Shown: positions 5,734 through 26,991, counted from the stretch's first letter. The stretch: 26,991 nucleotides of DNA from Actinomycetes bacterium (GCA_021811025.1 JAJZPX010000001.1:1-26991); one strand, 5' to 3'. The notes: generated by a model not told the origin, from the sequence alone. Numbers and translations are program-made.

Positions 5734-6939
5734 CTAGCAGGTGAGATCGCACATCAGGTCGAGGTAGTCGCTCATGAGCCGCGTCATCAGGAACTTCTCG
5801 CGCACCGTCTCCTTGCCGTTGCGCCCGAGCTCGGCTGCCCAATCGGGGTCGCGAAGCGCGCGAAGGATGGCCTCGGCGAAGGCGTCATCGTCCCCGGGAT
5901 CCACGAGCAAGCCGTTCACGCCGTCGGTGATCTGCAGCGGGATGCCGCCCACGCGCGTCGAGACGACGGGCTTCCCCTTCCACAGCCCTTCCGTCACCGT
6001 GAGCCCGAAGCCCTCACGCAGCGACTTCTGCAGGAGCACGGTGGCCGAGCGCTGCAGCGCGTTCACCAGCACGTTGCTCTCGAACTGGATGAGGATCAGG
6101 TCGCCGGACTCGAGATGGGGGCGCGCCTCCTCCTCGACATGCTTGTAGATGACCTCGCCCTCGGGATCGTCGGCCGCCATCGAGCCGCACAGCACCAGCC
6201 GGCAGTCGACCTCCTGCTTCACCTTCATGAACGCTCGCACGACGCCGAGCGGGTCCTTCCACTTGTCGAACCTCGAGATCTGCACGAGCAGGGGCTTGTC
6301 CGTCCCGACCCCGAACCGGTCGAGGTTCTTGCGCACGAGCATCGGCGCCAGGTCCATGTTCTTCGCCGAGAGCGGGTCGATGGCCGGAGGGAAGACCCTC
6401 TGTTCGATCGGGAGGTCCTTCCGGTACGACTCGTTGCTGATGATCATCGCGTCGTAGCGGATGATGAACTCGGCGAGGAAGTCCCAGAGCTCCGCGTTCG
6501 GGTGCGTGATGTCGATATGGCACCGCCACACCCACGGCTGCTTCTTCTTGTAGAACTTCACGAGAGGAAGCGGCTGCGGGTCGTGCACCACCACGCACTC
6601 GTGCATGATGTGCGTGTACGTCGCGAAGTCCTCGTTCTGCGTGACGTACAGGTGCTTCTTGACCTCCGTCAGGTTCACGTCCTCGCCCTGCAGGCCGTTG
6701 TGGAACTTCTTCGTCGTGTTGAAGAAGTCCGCGTTCCCCGCGAGCACGCGCCAGCCGGTGTCGATGCCGGTGTTGTTCATGAGCGGGATGAGCGACTGCA
6801 GCATCTCTGCGACGCCGCCGCCGGCATAGGTGGAGTTGATGTGCACGTAGTGCTTCGGATAGAGCTTCCTCGCGCGGCGATGAATGTCCGCGTACACGTC
6901 GTTTCCGACGATCGGCCGGTAGTCCTCGAGGCTATGCAT
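5734..6939 (-). CDS. treT: TreT-like trehalose synthase (GT4 glycosyltransferase)
   Basis: Motifs LEDYRPIVG, HINSTYAGGGVAEML, FFNTTKKFHNGLQG, HDPQPLPL, WRCHID, SRFDKWKDP and EGFGLTVTEGLWKGKPVV. The start overlaps the TPS-TPP stop by 8 nt. Confidence 0.88.
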   Translation of the reverse strand: MHSLEDYRPIVGNDVYADIHRRARKLYPKHYVHINSTYAGGGVAEMLQSLIPLMNNTGIDTGWRVLAGNADFFNTTKKFHNGLQGEDVNLTEVKKHLYVTQNEDFATYTHIMHECVVVHDPQPLPLVKFYKKKQPWVWRCHIDITHPNAELWDFLAEFIIRYDAMIISNESYRKDLPIEQRVFPPAIDPLSAKNMDLAPMLVRKNLDRFGVGTDKPLLVQISRFDKWKDPLGVVRAFMKVKQEVDCRLVLCGSMAADDPEGEVIYKHVEEEARPHLESGDLILIQFESNVLVNALQRSATVLLQKSLREGFGLTVTEGLWKGKPVVSTRVGGIPLQITDGVNGLLVDPGDDDAFAEAILRALRDPDWAAELGRNGKETVREKFLMTRLMSDYLDLMCDLTC

Positions 6940-9121
6940 CGCCGCTCACCAACTCCCTCAGCAGCTCGCGGACTTCCCCCACGGAGTCCAGGCTGAACTT
7001 CGCTCTCGACGGTCCGATTCCGACCTTGATCGAGGTTGCCCAATCCGGCAGCACCGAGAACACGTCTTCGTCCGTTCGGTCGTCGCCGAGCGACAGCACG
7101 AAGTCCCAGCCGTCGCTCTCCAGCCACTTCAGAGCTCCGCGCCCCTTGTCGATGCTGCTGCTCTTGACCTCGATGACCTTGTTGCCCGGGAGCACCCCGA
7201 GGTTCTGGTTCGCCGTGAGGTGTGTGAGCGAGTCCTGCAGCTCGCGCGATCGAACCTGGGCTAGGGCCGGGTCCGTTCGCCGGTAGTGCCATGCGAGAGA
7301 GAAGTCCTTCTCCTCGACGAAGCTCCCGGGGGTGCGGTCGACGTACTGGTCGAGGATGGGCCGGATCTCGGCCTTCCACGCGTCGTCGAGCGACTCGGTC
7401 ATGCGCCACTCGCCTGCGCGCTCCCGCACCCACGCGCCGTGCTCGGCGATGAGCCCGATGTCGAGCTCGCCGAGCCAGCGCTCCAGCCGCCGCCGGTCGC
7501 GTCCGGAGACGATCACGACCTCGTTGGCTGCATCGCTCGCGATCTCGCGGAGCAGCGCGACCAGCTCGGGATCCGGGCGGAGCTTCTCGATCCGGGCCGA
7601 GAACGGCATCAGCGTGCCGTCGTAGTCGAGGAGCAGCAGCCGGCGGCGCGTCTGGCGGTAGTCCCACACGAGGAACTCGCGGGCGCGCGGCGTCAGCTTG
7701 CGCGCGTTGAGATGCCGTTGCACCCGCTTGATAGCACCGAGCTGATCGATGAAGTCCGACGCCCAGCGCTCGACGTCGTAGTCCTCGAGGCGCCGCTGCA
7801 TGAGCGCGAGGCGCTCCGTCTGCTCCTCGTCGGCCATCTCGAGGGCTTCCTCGATCGCGTCGGCCAGCTCCTCGCGGTTGTTGGGGTTGACCACGATCGC
7901 CTCACCCATCTCCATCGCCGCGCCCGCCATCTCGGACAGGATCAGGACTCCCTTATCCCCGCTCTTGGCAGCGACGAACTCCTTCGCGATGAGGTTCATC
8001 CCGTCGCGCAGCGGAGTGACCATCGCGATGTCGGCGGCGACGTACAGCGCGACGAGGTCCTTGAAGGGCAGCGACCGGTAGAGGTACCTCACCGGCGTCC
8101 AGTCCATCGTCGCGTGCTCCCCGTTGATCCGCCCGATCAGCTCGTCCACCTGCTGTTTCAGCTCGCGGTAGTGCTCGACGCGGGTGCGCGAGGGCACGGC
8201 GACGAGCAGCAGGTCCACGCGCTCGCGCTGCTCGGGGTGGCGGCGGAGGAAAAGGTCGAACGCCTCGAGACGCTGCACGATCCCCTTCGTGTAGTCGAGG
8301 CGGTCGACGGACAGGATGATCTTGCGCTCGCCCGACTTGCGGCGGATCCGGGTCGTCTCGCCCTGCACCTCGGCCGAGCGGGCGGAGTCCGCGAATCGGC
8401 GGAAGTCGATCCCCATCGGGAAGGCGTCCACCTTGACGACCCGGTCGATCGTGGTGATCTGCCCGAAGAGGTGCTCGTAGCCGGTGAGGCGAATCGCGGA
8501 GTCCAGGTAGTGACGCGCGTAGTCGTACGTGTGGAAGCCGATGAGGTCCGCGCCGAGCATCCCCGTCAGCAGCTCGCGGCGCCACGGCAGCATCCGGAAC
8601 ACCTCGAACGTCGGGAACGGGATGTGCAAGAAGAAGCCGATGCTGGCTTCGGGCAACCGATCGCGGACCATCCCCGGCACCAGCATCAGGTGGTAGTCGT
8701 GGACCCAGATCGTGTCGCCGGCCCGGGCCGCCGCAAGCACCGCCTCGGCGAAGCGCCGGTTCACCCGCACGTACGCCTGCCACGTCGAGGAGTCGAAGAC
8801 CGCGTACTGTGTGAACTGGTGGAACGTCGGCCACAGCGTCTTGTTCGCGAAGCCGTGGTAGTAGCCCCGCACGTCCGCGTCCGACAGGAAGACCGGATAC
8901 GCGGAGTACTCACCTTCGAGCTGTCGCGCGATCTCCGCGCGTTCCGTCGTGCCGGTCCGCTCGGGGACGTCGGCCCACCCGATCCACGCGGCGTCGTATT
9001 CCTTGTAGAACGAGGCGAGGCCGGTGGCGAGCCCTCCGACGCTTTGCGCGAAGGAGATTCCCTCTCGGCGGCGGTCGATCGTGACGGGCAGGCGGTTGGA
9101 CACGATGAGTAGTCTGCTCAC
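6932..9121 (-). CDS. otsAB: Bifunctional trehalose-6-phosphate synthase/phosphatase (OtsA-OtsB fusion, 729 aa)
   Basis: GTG at 9121 gives MSRLLIVSNRLPV. GT20 motifs GGLATGL, WVHDYHL, GFFLHIPFP, DRLDYTKGI and TPLRDGMNLIAKEF. HAD domain LLLDYDGTL, SGRDR, AEHGAW and LGDDRTDEDVF. Confidence 0.95.
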   Translation of the reverse strand: MSRLLIVSNRLPVTIDRRREGISFAQSVGGLATGLASFYKEYDAAWIGWADVPERTGTTERAEIARQLEGEYSAYPVFLSDADVRGYYHGFANKTLWPTFHQFTQYAVFDSSTWQAYVRVNRRFAEAVLAAARAGDTIWVHDYHLMLVPGMVRDRLPEASIGFFLHIPFPTFEVFRMLPWRRELLTGMLGADLIGFHTYDYARHYLDSAIRLTGYEHLFGQITTIDRVVKVDAFPMGIDFRRFADSARSAEVQGETTRIRRKSGERKIILSVDRLDYTKGIVQRLEAFDLFLRRHPEQRERVDLLLVAVPSRTRVEHYRELKQQVDELIGRINGEHATMDWTPVRYLYRSLPFKDLVALYVAADIAMVTPLRDGMNLIAKEFVAAKSGDKGVLILSEMAGAAMEMGEAIVVNPNNREELADAIEEALEMADEEQTERLALMQRRLEDYDVERWASDFIDQLGAIKRVQRHLNARKLTPRAREFLVWDYRQTRRRLLLLDYDGTLMPFSARIEKLRPDPELVALLREIASDAANEVVIVSGRDRRRLERWLGELDIGLIAEHGAWVRERAGEWRMTESLDDAWKAEIRPILDQYVDRTPGSFVEEKDFSLAWHYRRTDPALAQVRSRELQDSLTHLTANQNLGVLPGNKVIEVKSSSIDKGRGALKWLESDGWDFVLSLGDDRTDEDVFSVLPDWATSIKVGIGPSRAKFSLDSVGEVRELLRELVSGDA

Positions 9122-9261
9122 GTGAGCGAGCCCTGCCTTTCGGTCGTGCTTCCTAGATTCCCGAAGGCGTGGAGCCGGTAACCGGCGGGCGTGGGCGTGC
9201 TCCTCGTCCGGGGCGTCGAGGCGAAGATGCGCCTCCCGTGCGCGCGTCGGGCCGCCGCCTA

Positions 9262-9267
9262 TATAAT
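9262..9267 (+). promoter_or_regulatory. Consensus -10 (TATAAT) upstream of the 9321 lipoprotein gene
   Basis: A perfect TATAAT inside an AT-rich patch (TATATAATT) in the divergent intergenic region. It might also serve the minus strand. Confidence 0.55.
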
Positions 9268-9320
9268 TGCTGTCGAGGTGCTCGAGCGGGCCGGGTGACG
9301 GGATTGGGGAGAGGTCGGAC

Positions 9321-10205
9321 ATGGATCGACGCGCGATCGTCGTCGGGGGCGTGACTTGCGCGGTGCTGCTGTCCGCGATCGCGTGCTCCCCCCTCTCGCC
9401 GACGGTCGTGACCCACGACATCCGCGTGCCCCTCGCCGCCGAGCGCTTCGCGGACGTCGGCATCGCCGTGACGACCGCGGACGTGCGGCTTTCCGGCGCG
9501 GCGGCCGATCTCGTCGAAGGCTCCGCCACCTACCCGGCGTCGGACGGGAAGCCGGAGACGTCGACGTCATCCCGCGAGTCGACCGCGGGCGGCGTCGCGG
9601 CGTTCGCCGTCAGCCAGGGCCCGGTCTCGCCCGCGTCGGGCAAGCGCTTGATCGACCTCCGGTTGAACGGGGGCCTGCCGCTCGATCTGAACGTCACGAA
9701 CGGGAGCGGCAACTCCGATCTCGACCTGACTCTGGTCGACGTCCAGGAGCTGAAGGTCAACGCGGACAGCGGGAACGCCTCCGTCAAGCTGACCGGCCCG
9801 CACCCCAGCCTGTCGCACGCGTCGTTCGCCTTCGGCAGCGGCACCGCGTCCATCACGGCAAACGGCGAGTACCCGGCGCTCGAGGGCTTCGAAGTCGACT
9901 CCGGCAGCGGTGCCGTCTCGATCGATCTCTCCGGCACCTGGCGCAAGAGCTTCACGGCACGCGTTCGTGCGAAGTCGGGGAACGTGACGCTGACGCTCCC
10001 GAGGGGTGCGAACATCGCCGTTCGCGGCAGCGTGGCTTCGGGCAAAGTCGCCGAGCCCGGGTTCGCTCGTTCCCGGATGCCGACGGACCGCCCGGGCGCC
10101 GTGTTCCTTCGGCGAGCGGCGGACAACCCCTCGGACTTCACGCTCGGGATCGAGGTCGACCTCGGAAGCGGGACTCTGACGCTGAGGGTCCCGGAGAAGA
10201 CGTAG
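9321..10205 (+). CDS. Lipoprotein with repeated beta-strand (toast-rack/DUF4097-like) domain (294 aa)
   Basis: ATG 9321 after GGGGAGAGG. Signal peptide with lipobox LSAIAC. Repeated [ND]xGSG-x-[hydrophobic]-x-[hydrophobic] units (TNGSGNSDLDL, ADSGNASVKL, FGSGTASITA, DSGSGAVSIDL, AKSGNVTLTL, DLGSGTLTL). Confidence 0.75.
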   Translation: MDRRAIVVGGVTCAVLLSAIACSPLSPTVVTHDIRVPLAAERFADVGIAVTTADVRLSGAAADLVEGSATYPASDGKPETSTSSRESTAGGVAAFAVSQGPVSPASGKRLIDLRLNGGLPLDLNVTNGSGNSDLDLTLVDVQELKVNADSGNASVKLTGPHPSLSHASFAFGSGTASITANGEYPALEGFEVDSGSGAVSIDLSGTWRKSFTARVRAKSGNVTLTLPRGANIAVRGSVASGKVAEPGFARSRMPTDRPGAVFLRRAADNPSDFTLGIEVDLGSGTLTLRVPEKT

Positions 10206-13296: not shown

Positions 13297-13405
13297 GCGC
13301 GACTTCGCCGGGATCCGGCGCGAACGCGACGCGTTCAGGCGCTCCCGGCCGCATGACGGCACGTCCGTCGCTGTGGCACGGCTGCCGGGCAGGCCTTGGA
13401 GCGCC

Positions 13406-13411
13406 TATAAT
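13406..13411 (+). promoter_or_regulatory. Consensus -10 (TATAAT) for the trypsin-like gene
   Basis: Perfect TATAAT, with CTGCCG 18 nt upstream as a weak -35. A GGAG lies 11 nt before ATG 13445. Confidence 0.55.
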
Positions 13412-13444
13412 GGGCGCGACCCGATGACTGGAGACCACCGCAGC

Positions 13445-14353
13445 ATGCGCTTCCGGCACGCGCCGTTCCTCCTTCTGGCGTCCGCATCGCTGATGCTGGT
13501 CGCGGCCGCTCCCTCGACCGGCAGCCCCGTGCCGGCCGCACCGCCGGCGTCCTCCGTCGCGGCGTCGGCGACGGCGACTTCGCCCGCGGACGCGCGCGCC
13601 CTCGCCGAGCAGGCGATCGTCGCGATGACCTCCGGCGGCGAGCGCACCGGCTCGGCAGTCGTCGTCGCCCCCGGGCTCGTCGTGACCTCCGCGCACGTCA
13701 TGAAGCTCGACCGTGCGGGCACGACGCGGATCATGACGATGGACGGCGGGTTCGCGCAGTTCGAAAAGGTGGCCGAGGACAAGCGCCTCGGCCTCGTGCT
13801 GCTTCGCGCCGGGGGCCTTGAGGCGAGACCGGTGGTCTGGGGCAAGGGACGCGAGCTCGTCGCGGACCAGCCGGTGGTCGCGCTGGGCATCGGCTCTCAG
13901 GGCAGGAGCCGCGTGCTGGAGCAGAGGGGCATCATGAAGTCCCCGGCGGCCGCCACCGGGAACGACCTCATGATCACCGACATCCGCATTGACCCTCTCG
14001 TCGAAGGCGGCCCGCTCGTCGGCGATGACGGCCGCGTCGTCGGGATCGTGGTGGCGAAGAGCCAGGGCGACGTGACGGGCGGCGAGGTCGGCTGGGCGGT
14101 GCCCAGCGAGGCCGTGCGGGAGTTCGTCAAAGGTGTCCAGGCGAAGCAGGCCGCAGACGCGGCCCGCGCAGCGAGACGAACGATCCAGCGCGTCATAGCG
14201 TGGGGGATCCTGCTGGCCTTCGTCGGCATGATGGTCCTCGCAGGCAGGGCGTTCCGCCGCTGGTACAAGCGCATGGAGGCTCGTGAGGAGGCCGCGATGG
14301 CGGCCGAGGCGGCCGCGCGCGCCGCAGGGCACGGGACGGCCCCGGACGACTGA
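13445..14353 (+). CDS. Trypsin-like (S1/HtrA-fold) domain membrane protein, predicted catalytically inactive (302 aa)
   Basis: Signal peptide, Ala/Ser/Pro linker, GSAVVVAPGLVVTSAHV, EDKRLGLVLL, GEPVVAxG-like LVADQPVVALG and TDIRIDPLVEGGPLVGDDGRVVGI, then a C-terminal TM helix. Alternative start at 13424. Confidence 0.8.
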   Translation: MRFRHAPFLLLASASLMLVAAAPSTGSPVPAAPPASSVAASATATSPADARALAEQAIVAMTSGGERTGSAVVVAPGLVVTSAHVMKLDRAGTTRIMTMDGGFAQFEKVAEDKRLGLVLLRAGGLEARPVVWGKGRELVADQPVVALGIGSQGRSRVLEQRGIMKSPAAATGNDLMITDIRIDPLVEGGPLVGDDGRVVGIVVAKSQGDVTGGEVGWAVPSEAVREFVKGVQAKQAADAARAARRTIQRVIAWGILLAFVGMMVLAGRAFRRWYKRMEAREEAAMAAEAAARAAGHGTAPDD

Positions 14354-14400: not shown

Positions 14401-16935
14401 TCACGCGTGCTTGACGTAGAAGAAGCGCTTGGCCACCTCGGCCGCTGCGATGTAGAAGACCTGGATGCCGATGAGGGCCACCAGGAAGACGGCGGGTATC
14501 GGCTTGAACCCCAACAGCGGCCCGATCCTCGGCGCGTACGGGAGCAGCAGCGTGATCACGACGACGGCCGCGGTGGCCAGCGAGAGGTAGGCGCTCGGCC
14601 TCGAGCGCCAGAACACACGGCGGGTGCGGATGACGAGCACGATGAGCGACGCGGTGAACACGTTCTCGACCCACCATCCCGTGTGGAACTCCACCTCGCC
14701 CGCGTGCAGCAGGAGCAGGAGCACGCCGAACGTGAGGTAGTCGCACGCCGAGTTGATCGGCCCGAACACCACCATGAAGTCCCGCAGGAAGCGCACGTTC
14801 CACCGCCGAGGGCGGTCGACGAGCTCGGGGTCCACGGCGTCCGTCGAGATCGTCATCGCCGGCAGGTCGGTCAGCAAGTTGCCGAGGAGTATCTGGGTGG
14901 GCAGCAGCGGCAGGAACGGCAGGAAGAGCGACGCTCCCGCCATAGAGACCATGTTGCCGAAGTTCCCGCTGATCGACATGTAGATGTACTTCAGCGTGTT
15001 CGCGAACGTCGCCCGTCCCTCGGCCACCCCCTGCCTCAGCACGCCGAGGTCCTTCTCGAGCAGCACGATGTCGGCCGCCTCCTTCGCCACGTCGACGGCG
15101 CTGTTCACGGAGATGCCGACGTCCGCCACGTAGAGGGCCGAGGCGTCGTTGATCCCGTCGCCCAGGTAGCCGACGGCGTGCCCCGCGCGCTTCAGCGCCC
15201 GGATGATGTCCTCCTTCTGGTTCGGCTCGACCTCCGCGAAGATGTCGACGTCCATCACGCGCCGCGTCAGCGCGGTCTCCGTCGTGCGATGCAGCTGCCC
15301 GCCCGTCATGATGCGAGGCTTCGGCAGGCCGAGCTGCTCGTCGACGGTCGCGGCGATGAGCGCGTTGTCGCCCGTGATGACCTTCAGCGTGATCCCGAGG
15401 TCGCGCAGCTGGCGCACCGTCTCCGTCACGCCCTCCTTCGGGGGATCGAACAGGACGAGGACGCCGACGAAGACCATGTCGCGCTCGTCGTCCTTCTCGA
15501 TCGAGTCTCGGTCGATCTCGCGCACCGCCACCCCCAGGGTCCGGTAGCCCTGCGACGACAGGTCCTGGTAGAGGCGCTCCAGCCGTCCCGTGACCTCCTG
15601 GTCCAGCTGCCGCGGCGACCCCGGCTCGCCTGCCCGCGTGCAGACCTCGAGCGTCTTGCGCAGCGAGCCCTTCGTCACCATGAGCCGCTCGCCGTCCTTG
15701 GCGACCAGCACCGACAGCCGCTTGCGCACGAAGTCGAACGGCTCCTCGTCGAGCTTCCGCCACCCGGTGAGGTCGAGCTTCACGGACGAGCGGATCGCGT
15801 CGTCGATCGGGTCCGAGAAGCCGGACTCGAAGGCGGAGTTGAGGTACGCGTAGAAGCGCACCTGCTCGCTGTCCTTGCCCTCGACGTCTAGCGCGGAGCG
15901 CAGCCGGACGATCCCTTCGGTGAGCGTCCCGGTCTTGTCCGAGCACAGGATGTCCATGGAGCCGAAGTTGTCGATGGACGACAGCTTCTTGACGATGACC
16001 TTCGACTCCGCCATGCGCTGGGCCCCTCTGGCGAGGTTGACGGTGACGATCGCGGGCAGCAGCTGGGGCGTGATGCCGATCGCGAGGGCGAGGGAGAACT
16101 CGAGGCTCGTGAGCACCGGCTTCTGCAGGTAGACGTTCACGGCGAAGATCGCGATCACAATGACCAGCGCGACCTGCACCAGGAAGTAGCCGAAGCGCCG
16201 CAAGCCGCGCTCGAACTCGGTCTCCTCCGCCCGTTCGGTCAGGCGCCGCGACACCTTCCCGAGCTCGCTCGCCGTCCCCGTCGCCACGACCAGCGCCCTG
16301 CCGCTCCCAGAGGTGATGTGCGTGCCCATGAAGAGGACGTTTGTCCTCCTCGCGAGAGGCGTGTCCTCCGGCAGGATTCCCGGGCTCTTCTCGACCGGGA
16401 AGGTCTCTCCCGTCAGCACCGCCTCGTCGGCGTAGAGGTCCTTCGCCTCGATCACCACCGCGTCCGCCGGGATGCCGGCCCCGGCCGAGAGCACGATGAC
16501 GTCGCCGGGCACGACGTCCGCGACGGGGACGTCGCGCTCCACCCCGTCGCGCACCACGCGTGCCTTCACCTCGACGATCGCGAGCAGCTTCCGCACGGCG
16601 TCGTTGGCGCCCCGCTCCTGCCAGAACGAGAGGAGCCCGCTCGCGGCCACGATGACCAGGATGATCGTCGCGTCCTGCGGGTCCCCAAGGAACCCGGAGA
16701 GTACGGCCGCGAACACCAGCACTAGGATGATCGGGTTGCGGAACTGGGACAGCAGCAGCCGCACGCTCGTGAGACGGCGGGTGACGGCGATGCGGTTCGG
16801 GCCGTGGGCCGCCAGCCGGTCCGAGGCCTGGGCCGTGGTGAGGCCGGCGGTGCCCGCCCCAAGGCCGTGCGCCACGTCCTCGGCGGGCATCGTCCAGAAC
16901 GCGCCTTGCGTCTGCGCCGGCTCCGGCAATCGCAT
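14401..16935 (-). CDS. mgtA: Magnesium-translocating P-type ATPase (MgtA/P3B-like, 844 aa)
   Basis: Motifs LTGETFPVEK, TPQLLPAI, MDILCSDKTGTLTEG, FDFVRKRLSV, DPPK, KVITGDN and GDGINDA. M5 KYIYMSISGNFGN and M6 NLLTD match the MgtA pattern. Confidence 0.85.
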   Translation of the reverse strand: MRLPEPAQTQGAFWTMPAEDVAHGLGAGTAGLTTAQASDRLAAHGPNRIAVTRRLTSVRLLLSQFRNPIILVLVFAAVLSGFLGDPQDATIILVIVAASGLLSFWQERGANDAVRKLLAIVEVKARVVRDGVERDVPVADVVPGDVIVLSAGAGIPADAVVIEAKDLYADEAVLTGETFPVEKSPGILPEDTPLARRTNVLFMGTHITSGSGRALVVATGTASELGKVSRRLTERAEETEFERGLRRFGYFLVQVALVIVIAIFAVNVYLQKPVLTSLEFSLALAIGITPQLLPAIVTVNLARGAQRMAESKVIVKKLSSIDNFGSMDILCSDKTGTLTEGIVRLRSALDVEGKDSEQVRFYAYLNSAFESGFSDPIDDAIRSSVKLDLTGWRKLDEEPFDFVRKRLSVLVAKDGERLMVTKGSLRKTLEVCTRAGEPGSPRQLDQEVTGRLERLYQDLSSQGYRTLGVAVREIDRDSIEKDDERDMVFVGVLVLFDPPKEGVTETVRQLRDLGITLKVITGDNALIAATVDEQLGLPKPRIMTGGQLHRTTETALTRRVMDVDIFAEVEPNQKEDIIRALKRAGHAVGYLGDGINDASALYVADVGISVNSAVDVAKEAADIVLLEKDLGVLRQGVAEGRATFANTLKYIYMSISGNFGNMVSMAGASLFLPFLPLLPTQILLGNLLTDLPAMTISTDAVDPELVDRPRRWNVRFLRDFMVVFGPINSACDYLTFGVLLLLLHAGEVEFHTGWWVENVFTASLIVLVIRTRRVFWRSRPSAYLSLATAAVVVITLLLPYAPRIGPLLGFKPIPAVFLVALIGIQVFYIAAAEVAKRFFYVKHA

Positions 16936-16954
16936 CCCCTCCCGACGCCGCCGT

Positions 16955-19402
16955 CTACCCGCTCGTAGCCATCGCGCGACGCGCCCTCCGGCCCGCCCCG
17001 GCGAACGCCTTCCTCGCCTCGATCGCGGAGAGGACGGCGACCGTGAACGCAGCGTCCGCCGCCAGCCAACCGGGCTCGACGGGGAAGAGGTTGACGAGCG
17101 TGCCGAGGCGCGGCGTGTACACGGTGACGATCAGGAATGCGAGGGCGGCCAGCGCCCAGACGTCGATCACCCGGTTCCTCAGCGGGCCGATCTCGAGCAG
17201 CGTCTCGTCGTCCGAGCGCGAGAAGAAGGCGAGCGTGACGTGGCCGACGATCCAGCTTGCGAAGGCGAGCGTCCGCACGGACGCCGGGTCGAACCCCTGG
17301 GCGCCGGCGAACAGGTACACCGCCGTCACGGCTCCGAACAGCAGCACCGCCTTGGCCGCCAGGTCGGCCAGCTGCCACCGGTCGAAGATGTCCGCGGTCC
17401 GCGGCGGGGGCCGCCGGGTGTAGATGTCGGGCTCCGGCGGCTCGGCGACGAACCCAGCCGAGGCCGCGAGGTCCATGAATAGCTCGAGAAGGATGATCTG
17501 GATGGGCGAGAACGGCAGCGGCAGCCCGGCGAGCGCCGGCAGCAGGAAGATCAGGATGAGCGCGAGCTTGACCGAGAGGTAGTACTTCACGCCCTTTCGC
17601 AGGTTGTCGAAGAAGGTCCTGCCGGTGAACACCCCTTCGGCGATCGTGACGTAGTCGTCGTTCGCCAGCACGACGTCCGCCGCCTCGCGAGCGACGTCCG
17701 TCCCGCGCTGCCCCATCGCGAGCCCGATGTCCGCGGCCTGCAGCGCGAGCGCGTCGTTCACGCCGTCCCCCGTAACGGCGACGACGTCGCCGTCCTCCTG
17801 GAGCGCCTCGACGATGCGGTACTTGTCGTCGGGGGTCGTTCGAGCGAACACGCTCACCTCTCGCACGAGCGAGCGCAGCGCCCGCGCGTCGAGGCCCTCG
17901 AGCTCCGGCCCGACCGCCACTCGCGCCGAGGCGGGCGCGATGCCCACCTCGCCGGCGATCCTCGCGGCCGTCGACGGGTGATCGCCGGTGACCATGATCG
18001 TGCGGATCCCCGCGGCGGCGGCGCGCTCGATGGTCTCTGCCACGCCCGGTCGCGGCGGGTCGGAGAAGGCGATCAGGCCGGCGAGCGTCATGCCGGTCTC
18101 GAGCTCGGGGAATGGGTCGTCACGGCGTTCCCGCGGCACGTGCCGTGTCGCCACGGCGATCACGCGGTAGCCGGCCGAGGTCTCCTCGTCGAGCGCTTCG
18201 CGGGCGCCGGCGGGCACGTCCGCGCACTTCGCGAGCACCTCCTCGGGCGCGCCGGTGACGTAGAGCGCGAACCCGGCGGAAGCCTCGCGCAGCGCCGCCT
18301 TCGTCTTGCCCCCGTCGCCGAGCTCCCGCTCGCGGACGATCGCGCGATGCCCGCGCGCCGACGCCTCGCGCAGCGCCCTGTCGATCGGAGTGTCCTCGTA
18401 CGGCGCGACGGCCGCGGCCGCGTCGGCCAGCACCTCGTCGCGCCGCTCCCGAGGGAACACGTCCGCGACGGTCATCCGGCTCTCAGTGATCGTGCCGGTC
18501 TTGTCTGTCACGATCGCCGTCACCGAGCCCATCGTCTCGGCGGCGGCGAGCCTCTTCACCAGGAACCCCCGCTTCGAGAGCCGGTAGCTGCCCAGGCCGA
18601 GCACCATCGTGATGATGATCGGCAGTTCCTCCGGGATCGTGGCGAACGACAGCGAGAGGCCGGTGAGGATCATGAGCCCGAGCGGCTGACCGCGCAGGAC
18701 GCCCACCGCCGGGATGAGCACGGAGAAGAAGACGGCGACGTACACGAGCTTGCCCGCCAGCGACCGCATCGCCTTCTGCAGCGGCGTCCGGGGGGCCTTG
18801 ATCGCGGCGGCCTTCGCCGCGACCTGCCCGAGACGGGTCTCCGCGCCGGTCGCGGTCACCACGGCCTCGGCCTCTCCCGCGAGCACGGCCGTCCCCGCGA
18901 AGAGCGGATCGCCCACCGTTCTGGCGACCGGATACGACTCGCCGGTGATCGAGGACTCGTCGACGGAAAGGCCCGTCGTCGTCGCCCGCACCGAGGCGTC
19001 CGCGGCGACGCGCGTCCCAGCCGCGAGGACGAGCACGTCGCCGGTCACGACGTCGGACGCCGGGACGTCGCGGGGCGCTCCGTCGCGGAGCACCCGGGCC
19101 TCGGGCGCGGTGAGCTCGGTGAGCGCGGAGATCGCTCTCTTGGCCCGGTACTCGTTCCATACTTCCGCGAGCACGAGCAACGCGATCACCACGAAGATCG
19201 TCGCCGCGTCCTCGATCCTGCCCGAGAGGCTGTACGCGACGCCGACGACGAGAAGCAGCAGGATCATCGGCTCGGTGATCTCCTCGCGAGCGATCGCGAA
19301 GAAGCGCACCGGCGCGGGACGCACGACGACGTTGGGACCCTGAGCGCCGAGGCGTCTCGCCGCCTCGGCGGAACTCAGGCCCCCGTTCGCGTCTTCCGGC
19401 AT
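16955..19402 (-). CDS. Cation-transporting P-type ATPase (P2-like, unassigned substrate, 815 aa)
   Basis: Motifs DESSITGES, IPEELP, DKTGTITE, DPPRPG, MVTGDHP and GDGVNDA. AGGAAGG SD before the ATG. Confidence 0.9.
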   Translation of the reverse strand: MPEDANGGLSSAEAARRLGAQGPNVVVRPAPVRFFAIAREEITEPMILLLLVVGVAYSLSGRIEDAATIFVVIALLVLAEVWNEYRAKRAISALTELTAPEARVLRDGAPRDVPASDVVTGDVLVLAAGTRVAADASVRATTTGLSVDESSITGESYPVARTVGDPLFAGTAVLAGEAEAVVTATGAETRLGQVAAKAAAIKAPRTPLQKAMRSLAGKLVYVAVFFSVLIPAVGVLRGQPLGLMILTGLSLSFATIPEELPIIITMVLGLGSYRLSKRGFLVKRLAAAETMGSVTAIVTDKTGTITESRMTVADVFPRERRDEVLADAAAAVAPYEDTPIDRALREASARGHRAIVRERELGDGGKTKAALREASAGFALYVTGAPEEVLAKCADVPAGAREALDEETSAGYRVIAVATRHVPRERRDDPFPELETGMTLAGLIAFSDPPRPGVAETIERAAAAGIRTIMVTGDHPSTAARIAGEVGIAPASARVAVGPELEGLDARALRSLVREVSVFARTTPDDKYRIVEALQEDGDVVAVTGDGVNDALALQAADIGLAMGQRGTDVAREAADVVLANDDYVTIAEGVFTGRTFFDNLRKGVKYYLSVKLALILIFLLPALAGLPLPFSPIQIILLELFMDLAASAGFVAEPPEPDIYTRRPPPRTADIFDRWQLADLAAKAVLLFGAVTAVYLFAGAQGFDPASVRTLAFASWIVGHVTLAFFSRSDDETLLEIGPLRNRVIDVWALAALAFLIVTVYTPRLGTLVNLFPVEPGWLAADAAFTVAVLSAIEARKAFAGAGRRARRAMATSG

Positions 19403-20972: not shown

Positions 20973-21002
20973 TCGCAAGGGCGTTCCCGCCCATGCTACG
21001 AT
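20973..21002 (+). promoter_or_regulatory. Promoter of the chemosensory operon (TCGCAA-N18-TACGAT with extended -10 TG)
   Basis: TGC-TACGAT at 20994-21002 and a -35-like TCGCAA at 20973-20978, about 80 nt upstream of the first start codon. Confidence 0.5.
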
Positions 21003-21083: not shown

Positions 21084-21833
21084 TTGGCACTCGAGGGCAA
21101 CCTGAGGGACTTCTCGCTTGCGGACATGTTCCGCCTCCTCGCCTCCGGCGCGAAGACGGGCACCCTCTACCTCGAGAGCGACGACGCCCAGGGCAAGGTG
21201 TGCTTCAAGAAGGGGCGCGTCTTCTTCGCCTCGTCCAACTGGAACCGCGAGTCCCTCGGCCGAAGGCTCGTGAAGGCCGGCGTGATCACGGAGAAGCAAC
21301 TGCGCCAGGCGCTCGGGCTGCAGAAGATCCAGAAGAAGGAGAAGGCGGGCAGGCGGCTCGGCCAGATCCTGGTGGACGAGGGCTACATGGACGGGAAGGT
21401 CCTCGAGAACTTCATCCAGGAGCAGATCAACGACACGCTGTTCGACCTCTTCCGCTGGGAGGACGGCGAGCTGCGCTTCGAGGCGGACGAGGTCGCCGAG
21501 GACGAGGACATCGGCGTGTCCGTGTCGGTCGAGAACATCATCATGGAGGCGTCGAGGCGCCTCGAGATGTGGAACCGCATCCGTCAGAAGATCCCCACGA
21601 TGCACACCGCCTTCGTCATGGCCGGCGCCCCCGGCGACAAATCGATGGAGATCCACCTGAAGCCGAAGGAGTGGATGCTCCTGTGTTACCTGCACGGCGG
21701 ACGTTCCGTGCGCGAGCTCGTGGAGCTCACCGGCTACAACGACTTCGAGACGGCCAAGATCCTGTACGGCATGTACTCGGCCGGGCTGATCGAGAAGGTG
21801 GCCCCCGAGGACGACCGGGCCGCGGAGACATAA
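21084..21833 (+). CDS. DUF4388 (PatA_N/PATAN) domain protein with tandem MshEN-like motif and C-terminal winged helix (249 aa)
   Basis: TTG start 5 nt after GGAGGT gives MALEGNLRDFSLADMFRLLASGAKTGTLYL. Then LGRRLVKAGVIT...RLGQILVDEG, LFDLFRWEDGELRFE, VENIIMEASRRL and a wHTH tail (EWMLL...GGRSVRELV...GLIE). Confidence 0.9.
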   Translation: MALEGNLRDFSLADMFRLLASGAKTGTLYLESDDAQGKVCFKKGRVFFASSNWNRESLGRRLVKAGVITEKQLRQALGLQKIQKKEKAGRRLGQILVDEGYMDGKVLENFIQEQINDTLFDLFRWEDGELRFEADEVAEDEDIGVSVSVENIIMEASRRLEMWNRIRQKIPTMHTAFVMAGAPGDKSMEIHLKPKEWMLLCYLHGGRSVRELVELTGYNDFETAKILYGMYSAGLIEKVAPEDDRAAET

Positions 21834-21846
21834 GAGCTGCCGCAAG

Positions 21847-23319
21847 ATGGCCGAGGCGAACCGACTCAACAAGGACCTGACTCTCGAGGAGTTCCGAGGC
21901 TTTCGCGACTACGTCCTGAAGCACTCGGGCATCTTCCTCGAGGACACGAAGATGGACAGCCTGCGGATCTCGCTCGTCGCGCGGGCGACTCGCCTCAACC
22001 TCGTGTCGTTCGCCGACTACATGTCGATCCTCCGCGCGGACGACAAGGAGTTCAACGAGCTCCTCAACCTCATCACGATCAACGAAACCAGCTTCTTCCG
22101 CTTCCCCCAGCAGTTCGACGCGCTCCGTAACCGCGTGCTGCCCGAGATCCTCGAGTCGAAGCTCTCGACCAACAGGAACGTGCGGATCTGGTCGGCGGGG
22201 TGCTCCACGGGCGAGGAGCCCTACAGCATCGCGATGACGCTCGCCGAGTCCGGGCTGGAGGGCCTGGGGTGGAGGCCGCACGTTCTCGGCACCGACGTCT
22301 CCACGAAGGCGCTGGCGAAGGCGCGCGAGGGGGTCTACCAGCGCAAGGGGCTCTCGGGGATGCCCGAGGAGATCGTCGAGCGCTACTTCGAGGCGGACGG
22401 GGAGCGCGTGCGGATGGGCCCGGCGGCCCGGCGAATGGTGGACTTCCAGTACCACAATCTCATCAAGGAGCCGTATCCCATCGAGATGATGGCGGGATGG
22501 GACGTCATCTTCTGCCGCAACGTCACGATCTACTTCAAGCTCGAGTCGACGCGTCGCGTCGTCCACAACTTCTTCGAGAGCCTCAACGACGGCGGGTACC
22601 TGTTCGTCGGCCATTCCGAGACGCTCACGAGCATCTCGGACGAGTTCGAGCCTGTGGAGGCGGGCGAGGTCTTCCTGTACCGCAAGCCGCGCCACGGCCG
22701 CGCGTTCAGCGCTCCAGCTCCACGCCTCGACGCGCAGCCGGCGCACGGGCAGCGCGCGAAGGCGGCGGGGCGGCAGCAGGAGCCTCCGAAGAAGCACCAG
22801 CGCGCCGACGACCTCGCGGCCGAGGCGGCGGAGCTGTTCGTGGAGCGGCACCCCGAGAAGGTGCTGGCGCTCGTCGACGAGATGCTCACGATGGAGCCCC
22901 ACGACGCGCAGGCGCACGTCCTTGCGGCGCACGCGTACGCGGACCTGGGCAACTACGACGCCGCGCTCGCGGCGTGCACCCGCGCTCTCGCGATCGACCC
23001 TCTGCTGCCCGTCGCGCGCTACATCCTCGGCCTCATCCAGCAGCGGCAGGGCGACGTGGTCGGCGCCGTGTCCGAGTTCAAGCGCACGATCTACATCGAC
23101 CCCGATTTCGCTCTCGCGCACCTGAACCTCGGGACGATCTACAAGTCCCAGGGCGACTGGGAGGCGGCGGCGCGGGAGTACGAGAACACCATCCGGGCGC
23201 TGTACAAGAACCCGACCGGATCGTGGCGCGAGTTCCTCGGCGGATTCCAGGCGGACCTGCTGCTCAAGACGTGCGAACGAAGTCTGCTAGAGTGCAGGAA
23301 GGCGATGGGAATCGCCTAA
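21847..23319 (+). CDS. cheR: Chemotaxis methyltransferase CheR with C-terminal TPR repeats (490 aa)
   Basis: Motifs INETSFFR, RIWSAGCSTGEEPYSIAM, GTDVS, FQYHNL, DVIFCRNVTIYF and GGYLFVGHSE, followed by TPRs (AHVLAAHAYADLG, ARYILGLI, FALAHLNLG). Confidence 0.95.
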   Translation: MAEANRLNKDLTLEEFRGFRDYVLKHSGIFLEDTKMDSLRISLVARATRLNLVSFADYMSILRADDKEFNELLNLITINETSFFRFPQQFDALRNRVLPEILESKLSTNRNVRIWSAGCSTGEEPYSIAMTLAESGLEGLGWRPHVLGTDVSTKALAKAREGVYQRKGLSGMPEEIVERYFEADGERVRMGPAARRMVDFQYHNLIKEPYPIEMMAGWDVIFCRNVTIYFKLESTRRVVHNFFESLNDGGYLFVGHSETLTSISDEFEPVEAGEVFLYRKPRHGRAFSAPAPRLDAQPAHGQRAKAAGRQQEPPKKHQRADDLAAEAAELFVERHPEKVLALVDEMLTMEPHDAQAHVLAAHAYADLGNYDAALAACTRALAIDPLLPVARYILGLIQQRQGDVVGAVSEFKRTIYIDPDFALAHLNLGTIYKSQGDWEAAAREYENTIRALYKNPTGSWREFLGGFQADLLLKTCERSLLECRKAMGIA

Positions 23320-23377
23320 AGCCGCCGGCGCGCTCACGCCGATAGAGATGTGTACGCTGTTTCGGGAGGGAGAGCGG

Positions 23378-23755
23378 ATGGCAGCGCGGATACTGGCGGT
23401 GGACGACAGCCCTACCATCCTCGAGATGATCAAGGCGATCCTCGTCGCCGGCGGCTACGAGGTAATCACCGCAGCCGACGGCCAGGAAGCCCTCAACACG
23501 GCGCGTGCCGAGAAGCCCGACCTGATCCTGCTCGACGTCATGCTCCCGAAGCTCGACGGCTATCGCGTCTGCCGCCTGCTCAAGTTCGACCAGAACTACA
23601 AGCACATCCCGATAATCATGCTGACCGCGAAGACCGAGGAGCAATCGATGGCGACCGGGCTTCGCACGGGTGCGGACCAGTACCTCACGAAGCCGATCGA
23701 GCCGGAGGTGCTCCTCTCGTCCGTCGCGCAGGAGCTCGGCAAGGTCGCAGGGTAG
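23378..23755 (+). CDS. Single-domain response regulator (CheY/PilH-like REC, 125 aa)
   Basis: ILAVDDSP, PDLILLDVMLPKLDG, IPIIMLTAK and YLTKP are all intact. GGGAGGGAG SD before ATG 23378. Confidence 0.93.
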   Translation: MAARILAVDDSPTILEMIKAILVAGGYEVITAADGQEALNTARAEKPDLILLDVMLPKLDGYRVCRLLKFDQNYKHIPIIMLTAKTEEQSMATGLRTGADQYLTKPIEPEVLLSSVAQELGKVAG

Positions 23756-23762
23756 GCGCGTC

Positions 23763-25637
23763 GTGTCCGAAGCGGCCTCGATAACGACCCGGGTCCTCGA
23801 TACGCTAGCCAACGCCGGGCTGGTCACGCTCGAGCAGCTCACCGTCATCAACGAGGCGGCGGCGGGCGGCCGGGGCGCGGGTGAGGTGCTCCTGGAGCGC
23901 GGCCTCGTCACGGCTCGCGACGTCGGCACGGTGCTCGAGGACGAGATGGGCGTGCCCCGCGTCGACCTCTCGAGCTACACGCCCGACGACACCGCGCTCG
24001 CGCTCGTGCCCGCCTCGGTCGCGCGTGAGCGCCGCATCCTGCCGCTGTTCGAGATCGAGGGCACGCTCACGGTCGCGATCGGCGACCCCATGGACGTCTT
24101 CTCGCTCGACGACGTCGCGAGGCAGCTGGGCGTCGAGCTCGATCCGGTGCTGGCGGAGCCGGCAGACCTGCTCGGGGCGATCGCGCAGTACTACGACGTC
24201 CGCGTCGAGGAGGATGCGGCGGGCGCGCTCGACGCCGCGGCGTCCGGGCCGCCTGCCGTGGAGCTCGAGCCCGAGCGTGCCGTGGAGGTGCCGGCCCCCA
24301 TGCCCCGCGAGGAGATGCCCCCGCCTCCGCCGTCGTCCGAGGAGCTGCTCGCGCAGCTCCCGCCGCGGGACGCCTCCGACGCTCCCGCTCCCGCCTCGGC
24401 CGAGGCGCACACGATGGAGGATGTCGCGGCGGCGGAGGTGACCGCCGCAGCCGGTCGCATCGACCTGGACGTGCTGGCCGTGGCGGACTCGCGCAAGATC
24501 GCCGTCCTGGTGGCCGACATCCTCGAGGACGCCGCCGGGCGCGGGGCGAGCCAGATCCATCTCCTCCCGTACAAGGAGGATTTCTTCCTCGTCTACCGGA
24601 TCGACGGCCGTCTCGAGAAGATCGCGACGGCCCCGCTCTCCATGCAGGGCGCGCTGGTCGACGCGTTCAAGTCGTTCGCGAAGCTGGGCTCGGTCCCCGC
24701 ATCGCTCCCCGCGCTCGGCCGCGTGCACTCGCGCCTCGGCGACTCGGAGACGGTGCTCGTGGTCTCCGCCGTGCCCACGATCGCCGGTCAGCGCGTCGTG
24801 ATCGGCCTCGCGGCGCCGCGAGCCAACCTGCCCGTGCTGGGAGACCTCGGGATGACCGAGGCCGAGGCGCGGGCGCTCGGTGCGATGGTCGAGCGGGGGA
24901 GGGGCATCCTCCTGCTTTGCGCGCCGGTGGCGGCGGGCCGGAGCACGACCTACTACGCGCTGCTGAGCCTCGCGGCAGCGGCGGGCAAGACGGCGTACTC
25001 GGTCGAGCGCTCGATCGACTTCGAGATCCCCGCGGTGGCACAGGTGATGGTGACGCCGGGCTCACCGGCAGGGGCTGCCGCGCACATAGCCGCGGGGCTG
25101 CGACAGGACACGGACGTCATCGCCATCGACGGCCTTCAGGCGGCCGAGGAGATACACCTCGCGGTGGAGGCGGCCGGGCTGGGCAAGCTGGTGATCGCGA
25201 CGTTCGCGGCCGGCGACGTCGTGTCCGGGGTGCGGCGCATGCTCGACCTCGGCGCGGAGCCGGTCAGCCTCGCCGCAGCGCTCACCCTCGGCGCGGGGCA
25301 GCGCCTCATGCGGACGAACTGCCCGGACTGCAGCGTCGAGCAGCGCAGCCCGCTCGCCGGCAAGATACCGGGCATCCCCTCGGACTTCGTGGACCGCGCG
25401 GGCGCGGGTTGCCCGAGGTGCGCGAAGACCGGCTTCCGCGGCATGACCGGCGTGTTCGAGGTCCTGCCGTTCACGGAGTCGATGCGCTCGGTGGTGGCGC
25501 ACGACGCGTCGCTGTCGGAGCTGGCGTCCGCCGCGAAGGCGGCGGGGATGCGGCCGCTGCTGGTTTCAGGGCTCGACAAGGCGCGCGCGGGGGTCGTCAG
25601 CCTGGCCGAGCTGGACAGAGTGCTGAGGTTGACGTAG
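23763..25637 (+). CDS. GspE/PilB-family protein with degenerate ATPase motifs (predicted pseudo-ATPase, 624 aa)
   Basis: Degenerate MshEN-like N-terminus, T2SSE_N domain (VPRVDL...ARERRILPL...VAIGDP), ASQIH, YRIDG, RQDTDVI, CPDC/CPRC, GFRGMTGVFEVL and GVVSLAELDRV. Walker A reads APVAAGRST. Confidence 0.88.
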   Translation: MSEAASITTRVLDTLANAGLVTLEQLTVINEAAAGGRGAGEVLLERGLVTARDVGTVLEDEMGVPRVDLSSYTPDDTALALVPASVARERRILPLFEIEGTLTVAIGDPMDVFSLDDVARQLGVELDPVLAEPADLLGAIAQYYDVRVEEDAAGALDAAASGPPAVELEPERAVEVPAPMPREEMPPPPPSSEELLAQLPPRDASDAPAPASAEAHTMEDVAAAEVTAAAGRIDLDVLAVADSRKIAVLVADILEDAAGRGASQIHLLPYKEDFFLVYRIDGRLEKIATAPLSMQGALVDAFKSFAKLGSVPASLPALGRVHSRLGDSETVLVVSAVPTIAGQRVVIGLAAPRANLPVLGDLGMTEAEARALGAMVERGRGILLLCAPVAAGRSTTYYALLSLAAAAGKTAYSVERSIDFEIPAVAQVMVTPGSPAGAAAHIAAGLRQDTDVIAIDGLQAAEEIHLAVEAAGLGKLVIATFAAGDVVSGVRRMLDLGAEPVSLAAALTLGAGQRLMRTNCPDCSVEQRSPLAGKIPGIPSDFVDRAGAGCPRCAKTGFRGMTGVFEVLPFTESMRSVVAHDASLSELASAAKAAGMRPLLVSGLDKARAGVVSLAELDRVLRLT

Positions 25638-26129
25638 ATGCCCGAGGCGCTGGAGAGCCATGCCCGGGAGGCGGTCGTCTTCCTTCTCGGAGGGCAGCGT
25701 TACGCGCTGCCCATCGACGCCGTGCAGGAGATCCAGCAGATCGTGGCGATGACGGACGTGCCCGAGTCGGCGCAGGGCGTCATCGGCATGGTGAACCTGC
25801 GCGGCGACGTCATCCCCGCCGTCGATCTCAGGCGGCTCCTCAAGATGGAGGCGCACGCGTTCGACCTGCAGACGCCCATGGTCATCGCGCGCCTGTCGGG
25901 CTCGCTCGTCGCGCTTGTCGTCGACGAGGTCGAGGACGTGGCGGCGCTCCCCGAAGGCTGCATCCAGGGCGCGGGCGAGTTCCTGGAACTGGCGGATCGG
26001 CTCATCGGGGTATGCCGGCTCGAGACGGAGCTCGTGTTCCTGCTCGACCCCGAGGCGCTGCTCGTCCGCGGCGGGGCCGACCGGGGCCGGGCGCAGCCTG
26101 AGCGGCGTTCGCGGAAGAAGGCGCAATGA
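25638..26129 (+). CDS. cheW: Chemotaxis coupling protein CheW (163 aa)
   Basis: VVFLLGGQRYALPIDAVQEI, VPES, GMVNLRGDVIPAVDL and LVVDEV. ATG immediately follows the upstream TAG. Confidence 0.93.
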   Translation: MPEALESHAREAVVFLLGGQRYALPIDAVQEIQQIVAMTDVPESAQGVIGMVNLRGDVIPAVDLRRLLKMEAHAFDLQTPMVIARLSGSLVALVVDEVEDVAALPEGCIQGAGEFLELADRLIGVCRLETELVFLLDPEALLVRGGADRGRAQPERRSRKKAQ

Positions 26130-26680
26130 TGCCGGGCGAACGCATCATGAACGCGGAACGCGGGGATCTTCTCAACGACGTCCAAGGCGTGCTCCGCTGG
26201 CGCGCCGAGTCGCTCGCGGCCGAGCAGCAGGAAGAGGCGGCCGAGGACGCGCTGTCCCTGCTGCTGTTCTCGCTCGGCGAGGAATCGTACGCCGTGCCGA
26301 TCCGGTCCGTGCGCGAGATCTACAACGAGTTCGTGATCACCCCGGTCCCGTGCGTGCCGCAGTTCATCCTCGGAGTGATGAACATCCGGGGCGAGATCGT
26401 GTCGGTGACGGACGTGAAGCAGCTTCTCCGGCTTCCGGCCGGGCAGCCGGACGCGATGTCGCCGGTGATAGTGGTCGAGAACGACGAGTGCTCCACCGCG
26501 CTGCTCGTCGACGAGATCGGCGACATCACCGACGTCCCCGAGAGCGCGCTCGAGGCGCCGGTGGCGACGCTCGACAAGAGCCAGGCCGCGTTCGTGTCAG
26601 GCAGCATCTACGTGGGGGGCAGGCTTGTCGGCCTGCTCGATCTCGAGGCGGTCCTCACGCCGATAGGCGTGGAGGCGTGA
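26126..26680 (+). CDS. cheW: Second CheW with N-terminal helical extension (184 aa)
   Basis: LLFSLGEESYAVPIRSVREI, TPVPCVPQFILGVMNIRGEIVSVTD and LLVDEI. ATGA overlap with the first cheW. Confidence 0.93.
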   Translation: MMPGERIMNAERGDLLNDVQGVLRWRAESLAAEQQEEAAEDALSLLLFSLGEESYAVPIRSVREIYNEFVITPVPCVPQFILGVMNIRGEIVSVTDVKQLLRLPAGQPDAMSPVIVVENDECSTALLVDEIGDITDVPESALEAPVATLDKSQAAFVSGSIYVGGRLVGLLDLEAVLTPIGVEA

Positions 26681-26703
26681 AGTCCAGGGAGGAACGGTAG
26701 ACG

Positions 26704-26991
26704 ATGGGGCTCCTTCAGCAATTCCGCAGCAGGTTCCTCTACAAGTTCTTCGCGGTGAACGCCGGGCTTGTCATCCTGGCGACCGCGCTGCAGGCCGCGG
26801 TCTTCTTCCTCGTGTTCGGCCACGAGATCGGCGGCTCGCAGGAGTTCCTCTCGGAGCTGTGGGTCACGGCCGCCGTGCTGGTCGTGACGCTCGCGCTGTG
26901 GCTGCTCGCGTTCATGCTCGTCGGGAGGCGCTTCATCGAGCCGCTCGGCCACATCTCCGAGTCCGTGAAGGCCGCCTGCCAGGGCGAGATC
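26704..26991 (+). CDS. Membrane protein with 2 TM helices + start of a HAMP domain; probable chemoreceptor (MCP), 3'-truncated
   Basis: Not in the ORF track; translated by hand as MGLLQQFRSRFLYKFFAVNAGLVILATALQAAVFFLVFGHEIGGSQEFLSELWVTAAVLVVTLALWLLAFMLVGRRFIEPLGHISESVKAACQGEI. GGAGG SD upstream, follows two cheW genes. The signalling domain is outside the window, so a kinase cannot be excluded. Confidence 0.7.
   Translation, partial: MGLLQQFRSRFLYKFFAVNAGLVILATALQAAVFFLVFGHEIGGSQEFLSELWVTAAVLVVTLALWLLAFMLVGRRFIEPLGHISESVKAACQGEI

Follow-up and report, generated by a model that had tools for sequence, protein, structure and literature searches.

Chemosensory pathways that do not act on flagella are common and their outputs are mostly unknown. 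The closest described relatives of the system discussed here are the Frz pathway of Myxococcus xanthus (FrzA, FrzB, FrzCD, FrzE, FrzF, FrzG and FrzX/FrzZ, signalling to MglA/MglB) and the Wsp pathway of Pseudomonas, which share a core parts list (composition taken partly from PMC4316618 and partly from established knowledge). A second point of reference is provided by the cyanobacterial Tax/Pix systems, where PATAN and receiver (REC) domains are fused in regulators of the PixG/PixE type. In Synechocystis, such PATAN-REC regulators bind the N-terminus of PilB1 and PilC (10.1101/2021.06.11.447907). The alpha-clip insertion of PATAN domains, which resembles the N-terminus of PilB-type ATPases, has been known since 2006 (Makarova 2006), and gene neighbourhoods of PATAN with MglA/MglB have likewise been reported (PMC4316618). 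Here, we characterize a chemosensory operon on a stretch of DNA of 26,991 bp from an Actinomycetes bacterium (GCA_021811025.1, JAJZPX010000001.1:1-26991; the window in the following). This operon encodes a stand-alone PATAN protein, a stand-alone receiver and a PilB paralogue predicted to be catalytically dead, termed PilBx, and probably steers type IV pili.

The window is an entire contig (C149, ca. 69% GC) of a metagenome-assembled genome of 2.14 Mb that consists of 320 contigs and is 86% complete. From position 21084 on, it holds the first two-thirds, counted from the 5' end, of an operon of nine genes with the order PATAN, CheR-TPR, REC, PilBx, CheW, CheW, methyl-accepting chemotaxis protein (MCP), CheA-REC and CheB. 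All seven same-strand genes that an initial annotation of the window had proposed from position 21084 to the contig end are present and carry the Pfam domains claimed, and the intergenic gaps of 13, 58, 7, 0, -4 and 23 nt were reproduced exactly. The features are as follows:

20994..21002, plus strand: candidate extended -10 element TGCTACGAT, ca. 80 nt 5' of g1
21084..21833, plus strand: g1, stand-alone PATAN protein (DUF4388), 249 amino acids (aa), TTG start; Pfam PF14332
21255..21425, plus strand: alpha-clip insert of g1, residues 58-114, with predicted tandem MshE-type cyclic di-GMP (c-di-GMP) motifs; NCBIfam NF053729
21591..21812, plus strand: C-terminal winged-helix-like domain of g1, residues ca. 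170-243; VIA-align, fold level only
21847..23319, plus strand: g2, 490-aa CheR methyltransferase carrying TPR repeats at its C-terminus; matches to Pfam CheR_N, CheR and a number of TPR families
23378..23755, plus strand: g3, single-domain CheY-like receiver (REC), 125 aa; Pfam Response_reg, 104 bits
23763..25637, plus strand: g4, PilBx, predicted catalytically dead PilB/GspE paralogue (MshEN and T2SSE), 624 aa
25638..26129, plus strand: g5, CheW, 163 aa, start abutting the g4 stop; Pfam CheW, 108 bits
26126..26680, plus strand: g6, second CheW, 184 aa, 4-nt overlap with g5; Pfam CheW, 116 bits
26704..26991, plus strand: g7, 5' part of the MCP with two transmembrane helices, an outer loop of ca. 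12 residues and the start of a HAMP domain

The TTG start of g1 lies five bases 3' of the ribosome-binding site GGGGAGGTG, and the N-terminal residues of g1 are those of its paralogue and orthologues. Contig C189 of the same genome repeats the final 349 nt of the window (26643-26991 corresponding to C189:1-349) with four mismatches (99% identity), and strain variation is probably behind the contig break inside the MCP gene. Beyond the overlap, C189 encodes a 406-aa HAMP and MCPsignal receptor, followed by a 768-aa CheA that unites Hpt, H-kinase_dim, HATPase_c, CheW and Response_reg domains in one protein, and a REC-CheB methylesterase. In an independent ENA contig from the same population all nine genes are contiguous, ending in a 350-aa CheB and followed by hydrogenase genes, and its PilBx differs from the window copy by one residue. 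The downstream MCP and CheA, on whose presence the initial annotation had staked its proposal, are found together with CheB on both contigs.

PilBx was compared by alignment with Geobacter PilBs of solved structure and with the host's own three active PilBs. The catalytic motifs compare as follows:

Walker A: GPTGSGKST in active PilB, APVAAGRST in PilBx
Asp box: EDPVE in active PilB, VERSID in PilBx
Walker B: DPDxxxVGEIRD in active PilB, DTDVIAIDGLQA (including DTDVIAIDG) in PilBx
His box: GHLVLSTLHTND in active PilB, GKLVIATFAAGD in PilBx

PilBx thus has no Asp box, and neither the lysine of Walker A, the catalytic glutamate of Walker B nor the two His-box histidines are present. The same losses are seen in 20 of 20 orthologues sampled while the three active PilBs of the host retain the motifs. 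Further, the Walker A arginine is replaced by glycine, serine or alanine in some orthologues, and therefore even nucleotide binding appears to be unconserved. Judged by its sequence, PilBx is unable to hydrolyse ATP in the manner of PilB, which bears out the earlier impression of an inactive protein. PilBx shares the order of MshEN, N2 and ATPase core as well as the zinc tetracysteine (CxxC...CxxC) with the PilB/PilF/GspE extension ATPases, whereas the Walker A lysine, Asp box, Walker B glutamate and His-box histidines of these enzymes are lost throughout the PilBx family. The zinc cysteines are invariant across the family, as are many core residues. Pfam scores are 192 bits for T2SSE and 72 bits for MshEN, and among PDB entries the protein matches Geobacter PilB best. 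PilBx stays below the NCBIfam equivalog cut-offs, with 281 bits for TIGR02538 (cut-off 676) and 250 bits for TIGR02533 (cut-off 630).

The possibility that PilBx arose recently by duplication of the PilB gene in the pilus locus was considered and rejected, since it is 27-31% identical to active PilBs which are themselves 45-56% identical to each other. In a quick, preliminary tree, the active PilBs group in a single clan with good support, and the dead PilBs of che operons fall outside it. As far as these comparisons reach, PilBx is a very old, diverged PilB paralogue. It is maintained by purifying selection and shows no decay: compared with the same-genus orthologue, the ratio of non-synonymous to synonymous substitution rates (dN/dS) is 0.16 for PilBx, 0.15 for CheA and 0.18-0.19 for the CheWs. 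By the same measure, constraint within the operon is strongest on PATAN (0.05) and REC (0.04).

The host, described as apparently of actinobacterial type in the initial annotation, is an uncultured anaerobe and belongs to the Coriobacteriia, order Anaerosomatales (formerly OPB41). The order of the nine genes is identical in all of the ca. 20 loci compared (18 genome records and several metagenomes), up to contig ends. As the flanks vary between loci, the operon represents a discrete cassette. PilBx was detected in 126 of 146 Anaerosomatales species genomes, in 91 of the 98 high-quality genomes and in 73 of 76 genera. The same threshold gave no PilBx in a sample of ca. 396 genomes from elsewhere in the phylum. 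The operon is carried by almost the entire order. The suggestion that a PilB-like gene resides inside the che operon thus holds across orthologous loci, where this conserved pseudo-ATPase is fixed. More distant dead PilBs (32-38% identity) from other Actinomycetota classes have the same neighbours, and sit in the same operon where contigs reach far enough. The start and stop codons of PilBx and the two CheWs abut or overlap in the window and in relatives alike.

When compared with described systems, the six core components match the Frz/Wsp gene set, and the parts typical of alternative cellular function (ACF) systems are present, namely a CheA with C-terminal receiver, two CheWs, a CheR with TPR repeats and a CheB. 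This is in agreement with the Wsp/Frz-like core noted initially. Because the core is a known one, novelty is limited to the three-gene accessory module, and the description as a new chemosensory system was overstated. For the module itself it stands: a trio of stand-alone PATAN, stand-alone CheY and dead PilB was not found in the open-access literature searched, nor was any characterized system with such a gene set. In comparison with Escherichia coli 36H-type models, the MCP has 28 more residues than the profile, while its alignment to the Pseudomonas aeruginosa CtpM model is collinear; the MCP may accordingly be of the 40-heptad (40H) class.

Frz and Wsp operons contain neither a PATAN nor a PilB-like gene while the Anaerosomatales operon has both. 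In addition, FrzCD is cytoplasmic whereas the receptor described here is membrane-anchored, Wsp has a GGDEF output for which there is no counterpart in this operon, and the host is a Gram-positive actinobacterium. Features in common with the Frz system are the non-flagellar host and the connection to type IV pili and to a GTPase module of the MglA/MglB type. The features shared with Tax/Pix are a che-like pathway, an alpha-clip PATAN with an insert resembling the PilB N-terminus, a receiver and a pilus-bearing organism. Here, PATAN and receiver are encoded by separate genes, as the initial annotation had stated and as Pfam confirms by placing them on g1 and g3. Further, CheR and CheB, absent from Tfp-class/Tax systems, are both encoded, CheA has a single Hpt domain, and the PilB-like partner lies inside the operon and is predicted to be catalytically dead.

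The PATAN assignment of g1 is clear, with 118 bits for PF14332 compared with a gathering cut-off of 25, and its best 120 homologues are 79-95% identical. The MshEN domain initially assigned to g1 was not detected by the Pfam MshEN model, which gave no match to the insert at E < 0.01, but NCBIfam NF053729, describing an MshE-related c-di-GMP motif, passes with 47.4 bits (cut-off 38). Motifs of the type RLGxx(L/V/I)(L/V/I)xxG...LxxxLxxQ are arranged in tandem with a glutamine closing both units, and BLAST shows the insert to resemble the N-termini of the active PilBs of the host. What had been read as PATAN-MshEN therefore does bear a c-di-GMP motif, yet corresponds to the known PATAN alpha-clip insertion. 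We consider g1 to be probably a reader of c-di-GMP, as predicted from this c-di-GMP-type motif. In PilBx, the first MshEN unit reads RVLD, without the glycine, and ends in alanine while the second unit ends in glutamate. The loss of the first-unit glycine and of both closing glutamines extends to all orthologues, whereas active PilBs keep RLG...Q. Because of this degeneracy, c-di-GMP input seems likelier to occur via g1. The AlphaFold2 model of g1 has a predicted local distance difference test (pLDDT) score of 88. Its PATAN core found no significant match in a Foldseek search of the PDB, and in a VIA search only the C-terminal winged-helix part (residues 170-243) matched, with Z scores of 6-8 that are at background level. 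The C-domain of archaeal CheF also matched, but too weakly (Z 6.5) to be of use. In the g3 receiver, the acidic pocket, the D53 equivalent and the threonine and lysine residues are all in place, and its identity across Anaerosomatales is 81-96%.

The host genome yielded ca. 15 GGDEF hits. It also carries a second chemosensory operon on contig C70 (L060:2967-6786, minus strand; complete relative at L061:4475-13291), which is of the Bacillus/Thermotoga type with CheR, MCP, CheW, CheY, CheB, a CheA with P2 domain, CheC and CheD. Its last gene, in a flagellum-less order, encodes a GAF-GGDEF diguanylate cyclase. This cyclase might be a source of the c-di-GMP read by the PATAN protein.

FlhA (PF00771) was found in 0 of 100 Anaerosomatales genomes at least 90% complete, with positive controls, in line with the non-flagellar system postulated at the outset. 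Two cultured members of the order are non-motile rods with pili-like appendages, which are ferrihydrite-induced in one of them (PMC9686372). Besides its three active PilBs, the host genome encodes PilT and ATPases of the Tad type. It also contains a second PATAN gene whose product, extended by a long acidic tail, is 55% identical to g1 over its full length. On contig C275 (L045:10842-15597), this gene follows genes for an active PilB and a Roadblock/LC7 (MglB-like) protein. The same-genus pilus locus (L051:240-14000) comprises PilB, the MglB-like protein, the long PATAN protein and a small Ras/MglA-like GTPase and, a few genes on, PilB, PilT, PilC, pilin and prepilin peptidase (pilD). An actinobacterial pilus locus thus encloses a polarity-type GTPase module. 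The combination of Roadblock/LC7, PATAN and small GTPase is like that of published PATAN-MglB/MglA neighbourhoods (Makarova 2006; Wuichet and Sogaard-Andersen 2014), among which no che operon combining PATAN with a dead PilB has been described. In two distant versions of the operon, a gene for a product of ca. 170 aa is located between PATAN and CheR. One product is 35% identical (E 1e-34) to the pilus-locus Ras/MglA-like GTPase. The other (GCA_015711795.1, L056:6526-7035) gave no Pfam match and its P-loop, GPFDAGRIA, is degenerate, so that the respective operon may hold two pseudo-NTPases. Separately, we considered whether loss of the operon is paired with loss of pili, which was unsupported: genus g295 lacks the operon and has PilC in 5 of 10 genomes.

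From these observations combined, we infer pilus control to be the best-supported output of the operon. We assign a probability of roughly 55% to the reading that this chemosensory operon, with PilBx, PATAN and REC, steers type IV pili. A membrane-anchored MCP that has no sensing domain on the outside and whose adaptation is due to CheR and CheB would govern CheA, which in turn would phosphorylate the stand-alone CheY-like receiver. The phosphorylated receiver would work with the PATAN protein, which probably reads c-di-GMP as well, the pair corresponding, as two separate proteins, to the PilB1- and PilC-binding PATAN-REC regulators of cyanobacteria. This pair would act with PilBx, which the initial annotation had put forward as a putative scaffold or output hub and which is a motor look-alike that may occupy or bridge PilB-type sites without driving assembly. 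As a result, the place or timing of pilus extension by active PilB would be set, probably via the MglA/MglB-like module beside the PATAN paralogue in the pilus locus. A more specific version of this mechanism, which we regard as tentative, holds that PilBx is a "pseudo-motor", a non-hydrolysing PilB mimic that competes or co-assembles with active PilB at the pilus platform under the control of CheY~P, the c-di-GMP-reading PATAN protein and the MglA-like GTPase.

Several observations weigh against pilus control. No pil genes border the operon, and in the same-genus genome the two lie ca. 130 kb apart on one contig. Genus g295, without the operon, retains PilC and the pilus-locus PATAN protein, so that the operon is unnecessary for having pili. 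With just 27-31% identity to active PilBs, PilBx may have drifted to a non-pilus partner, and its own degenerate MshEN leaves g1 as the sole route for any c-di-GMP input. In addition, the modelled winged-helix-like C-terminus of g1 would allow for transcriptional output. For a complex of g1 and PilBx predicted from alignments of our own, the score was 0.26, with the mark set at 0.32, and we weigh this result neither way.

The alternative that survives best, although we consider it unlikely, is a non-pilus output, i.e. biofilm or exopolysaccharide (EPS) formation, mineral attachment or gene expression, exerted via the winged-helix-like end of the PATAN protein on DNA or via PilBx as a signalling protein. 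Wsp, Dif and Frz-type cores frequently drive non-motility outputs, M. xanthus PilB reportedly serves as an EPS signalling protein, and the richness of the genome in GGDEF proteins, the separation of the operon from the pil genes and the fold of g1 residues 170-243 would all suit such an output. However, the PATAN paralogue, which shares this winged-helix end, is located within the pilus/MglAB locus, and an MglA-like GTPase gene is found in the distant operons. Winged-helix folds are also common as protein-binding modules, and Z scores of 6-8 are within background.

Less probable still is a role of PilBx as an input device. Docking at the pilus platform or reporting its occupancy, and coupled via the two CheWs to the receptor, PilBx would let the operon sense pilus or surface status in the manner of Pil-Chp and signal on via REC and PATAN. 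An MCP with ca. 12 residues outside the membrane and no ligand-binding domain would be compatible with such a role, as would the tight linkage of the PilBx, CheW and CheW genes and the retained structural core and zinc site of PilBx. In contrast, the split PATAN and REC pair favours the output logic of cyanobacteria and, to our knowledge, no known chemosensory array includes a PilB-like protein. That PilBx is a decaying, functionless relic carried along in the operon is very improbable since, despite the loss of every catalytic motif, its frame is intact in 126 genomes from 73 genera, its dN/dS is on par with that of CheA and CheW, no variation is seen in its zinc cysteines or in many residues of its core, and the same dead PilB is retained in other classes.

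A whole order of widespread subsurface actinobacteria retains a chemosensory pathway together with a predicted dead pilus motor that is constrained like the kinase. Some cultured strains of Anaerosomatales produce pili on iron minerals, and Anaerosoma and Parvivirga are cultured relatives. Should the dead motor connect the pathway to the pilus machinery, signalling would be coupled to an ATPase machine of the secretion type by a principle that is new. Such a connection would further give a concrete handle on the cooperation of PATAN, c-di-GMP and MglA-type GTPases outside Myxococcus and cyanobacteria. In case of the pseudo-motor, directed pilus-based behaviour would be achieved by motor mimicry in Gram-positive, flagellum-less actinobacteria, a wiring that is undescribed.

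Regarding transcription, generic scans returned no sigma-70 promoter 5' of g1 and no terminator after CheB. The promoter-like element reported earlier was not called by the sigma-70 scan, but an extended -10 candidate, located at 20994-21002, is kept in the same-genus locus while the rest of the intergenic spacer has diverged. In another family the gene upstream of the operon is divergently oriented, and the operon must therefore carry its own promoter there.

Elsewhere in the genome, contig C280 (L048:6746-8434) encodes a 563-aa fusion of an N-terminal receiver and a CpaF/TadA-like T2SSE ATPase core. On contig C286 (L047:8709-12818), an orphan 430-aa MCP gene lies directly 5' of the gene for an 850-aa multihaem cytochrome (Cytochrome_C7/c3 hits). 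In the window itself, a trypsin-like (Trypsin_2) gene at 13373-14353 is flanked on one side by a gene for a GNAT acetyltransferase and on the other by a tandem pair of P-type cation ATPase genes (14401-19402). Finally, trehalose genes are located at 5734-9529 on the minus strand, encoding a TreT-type trehalose synthase and an 864-aa fused Glyco_transf_20 and Trehalose_PPase protein (OtsA-OtsB).

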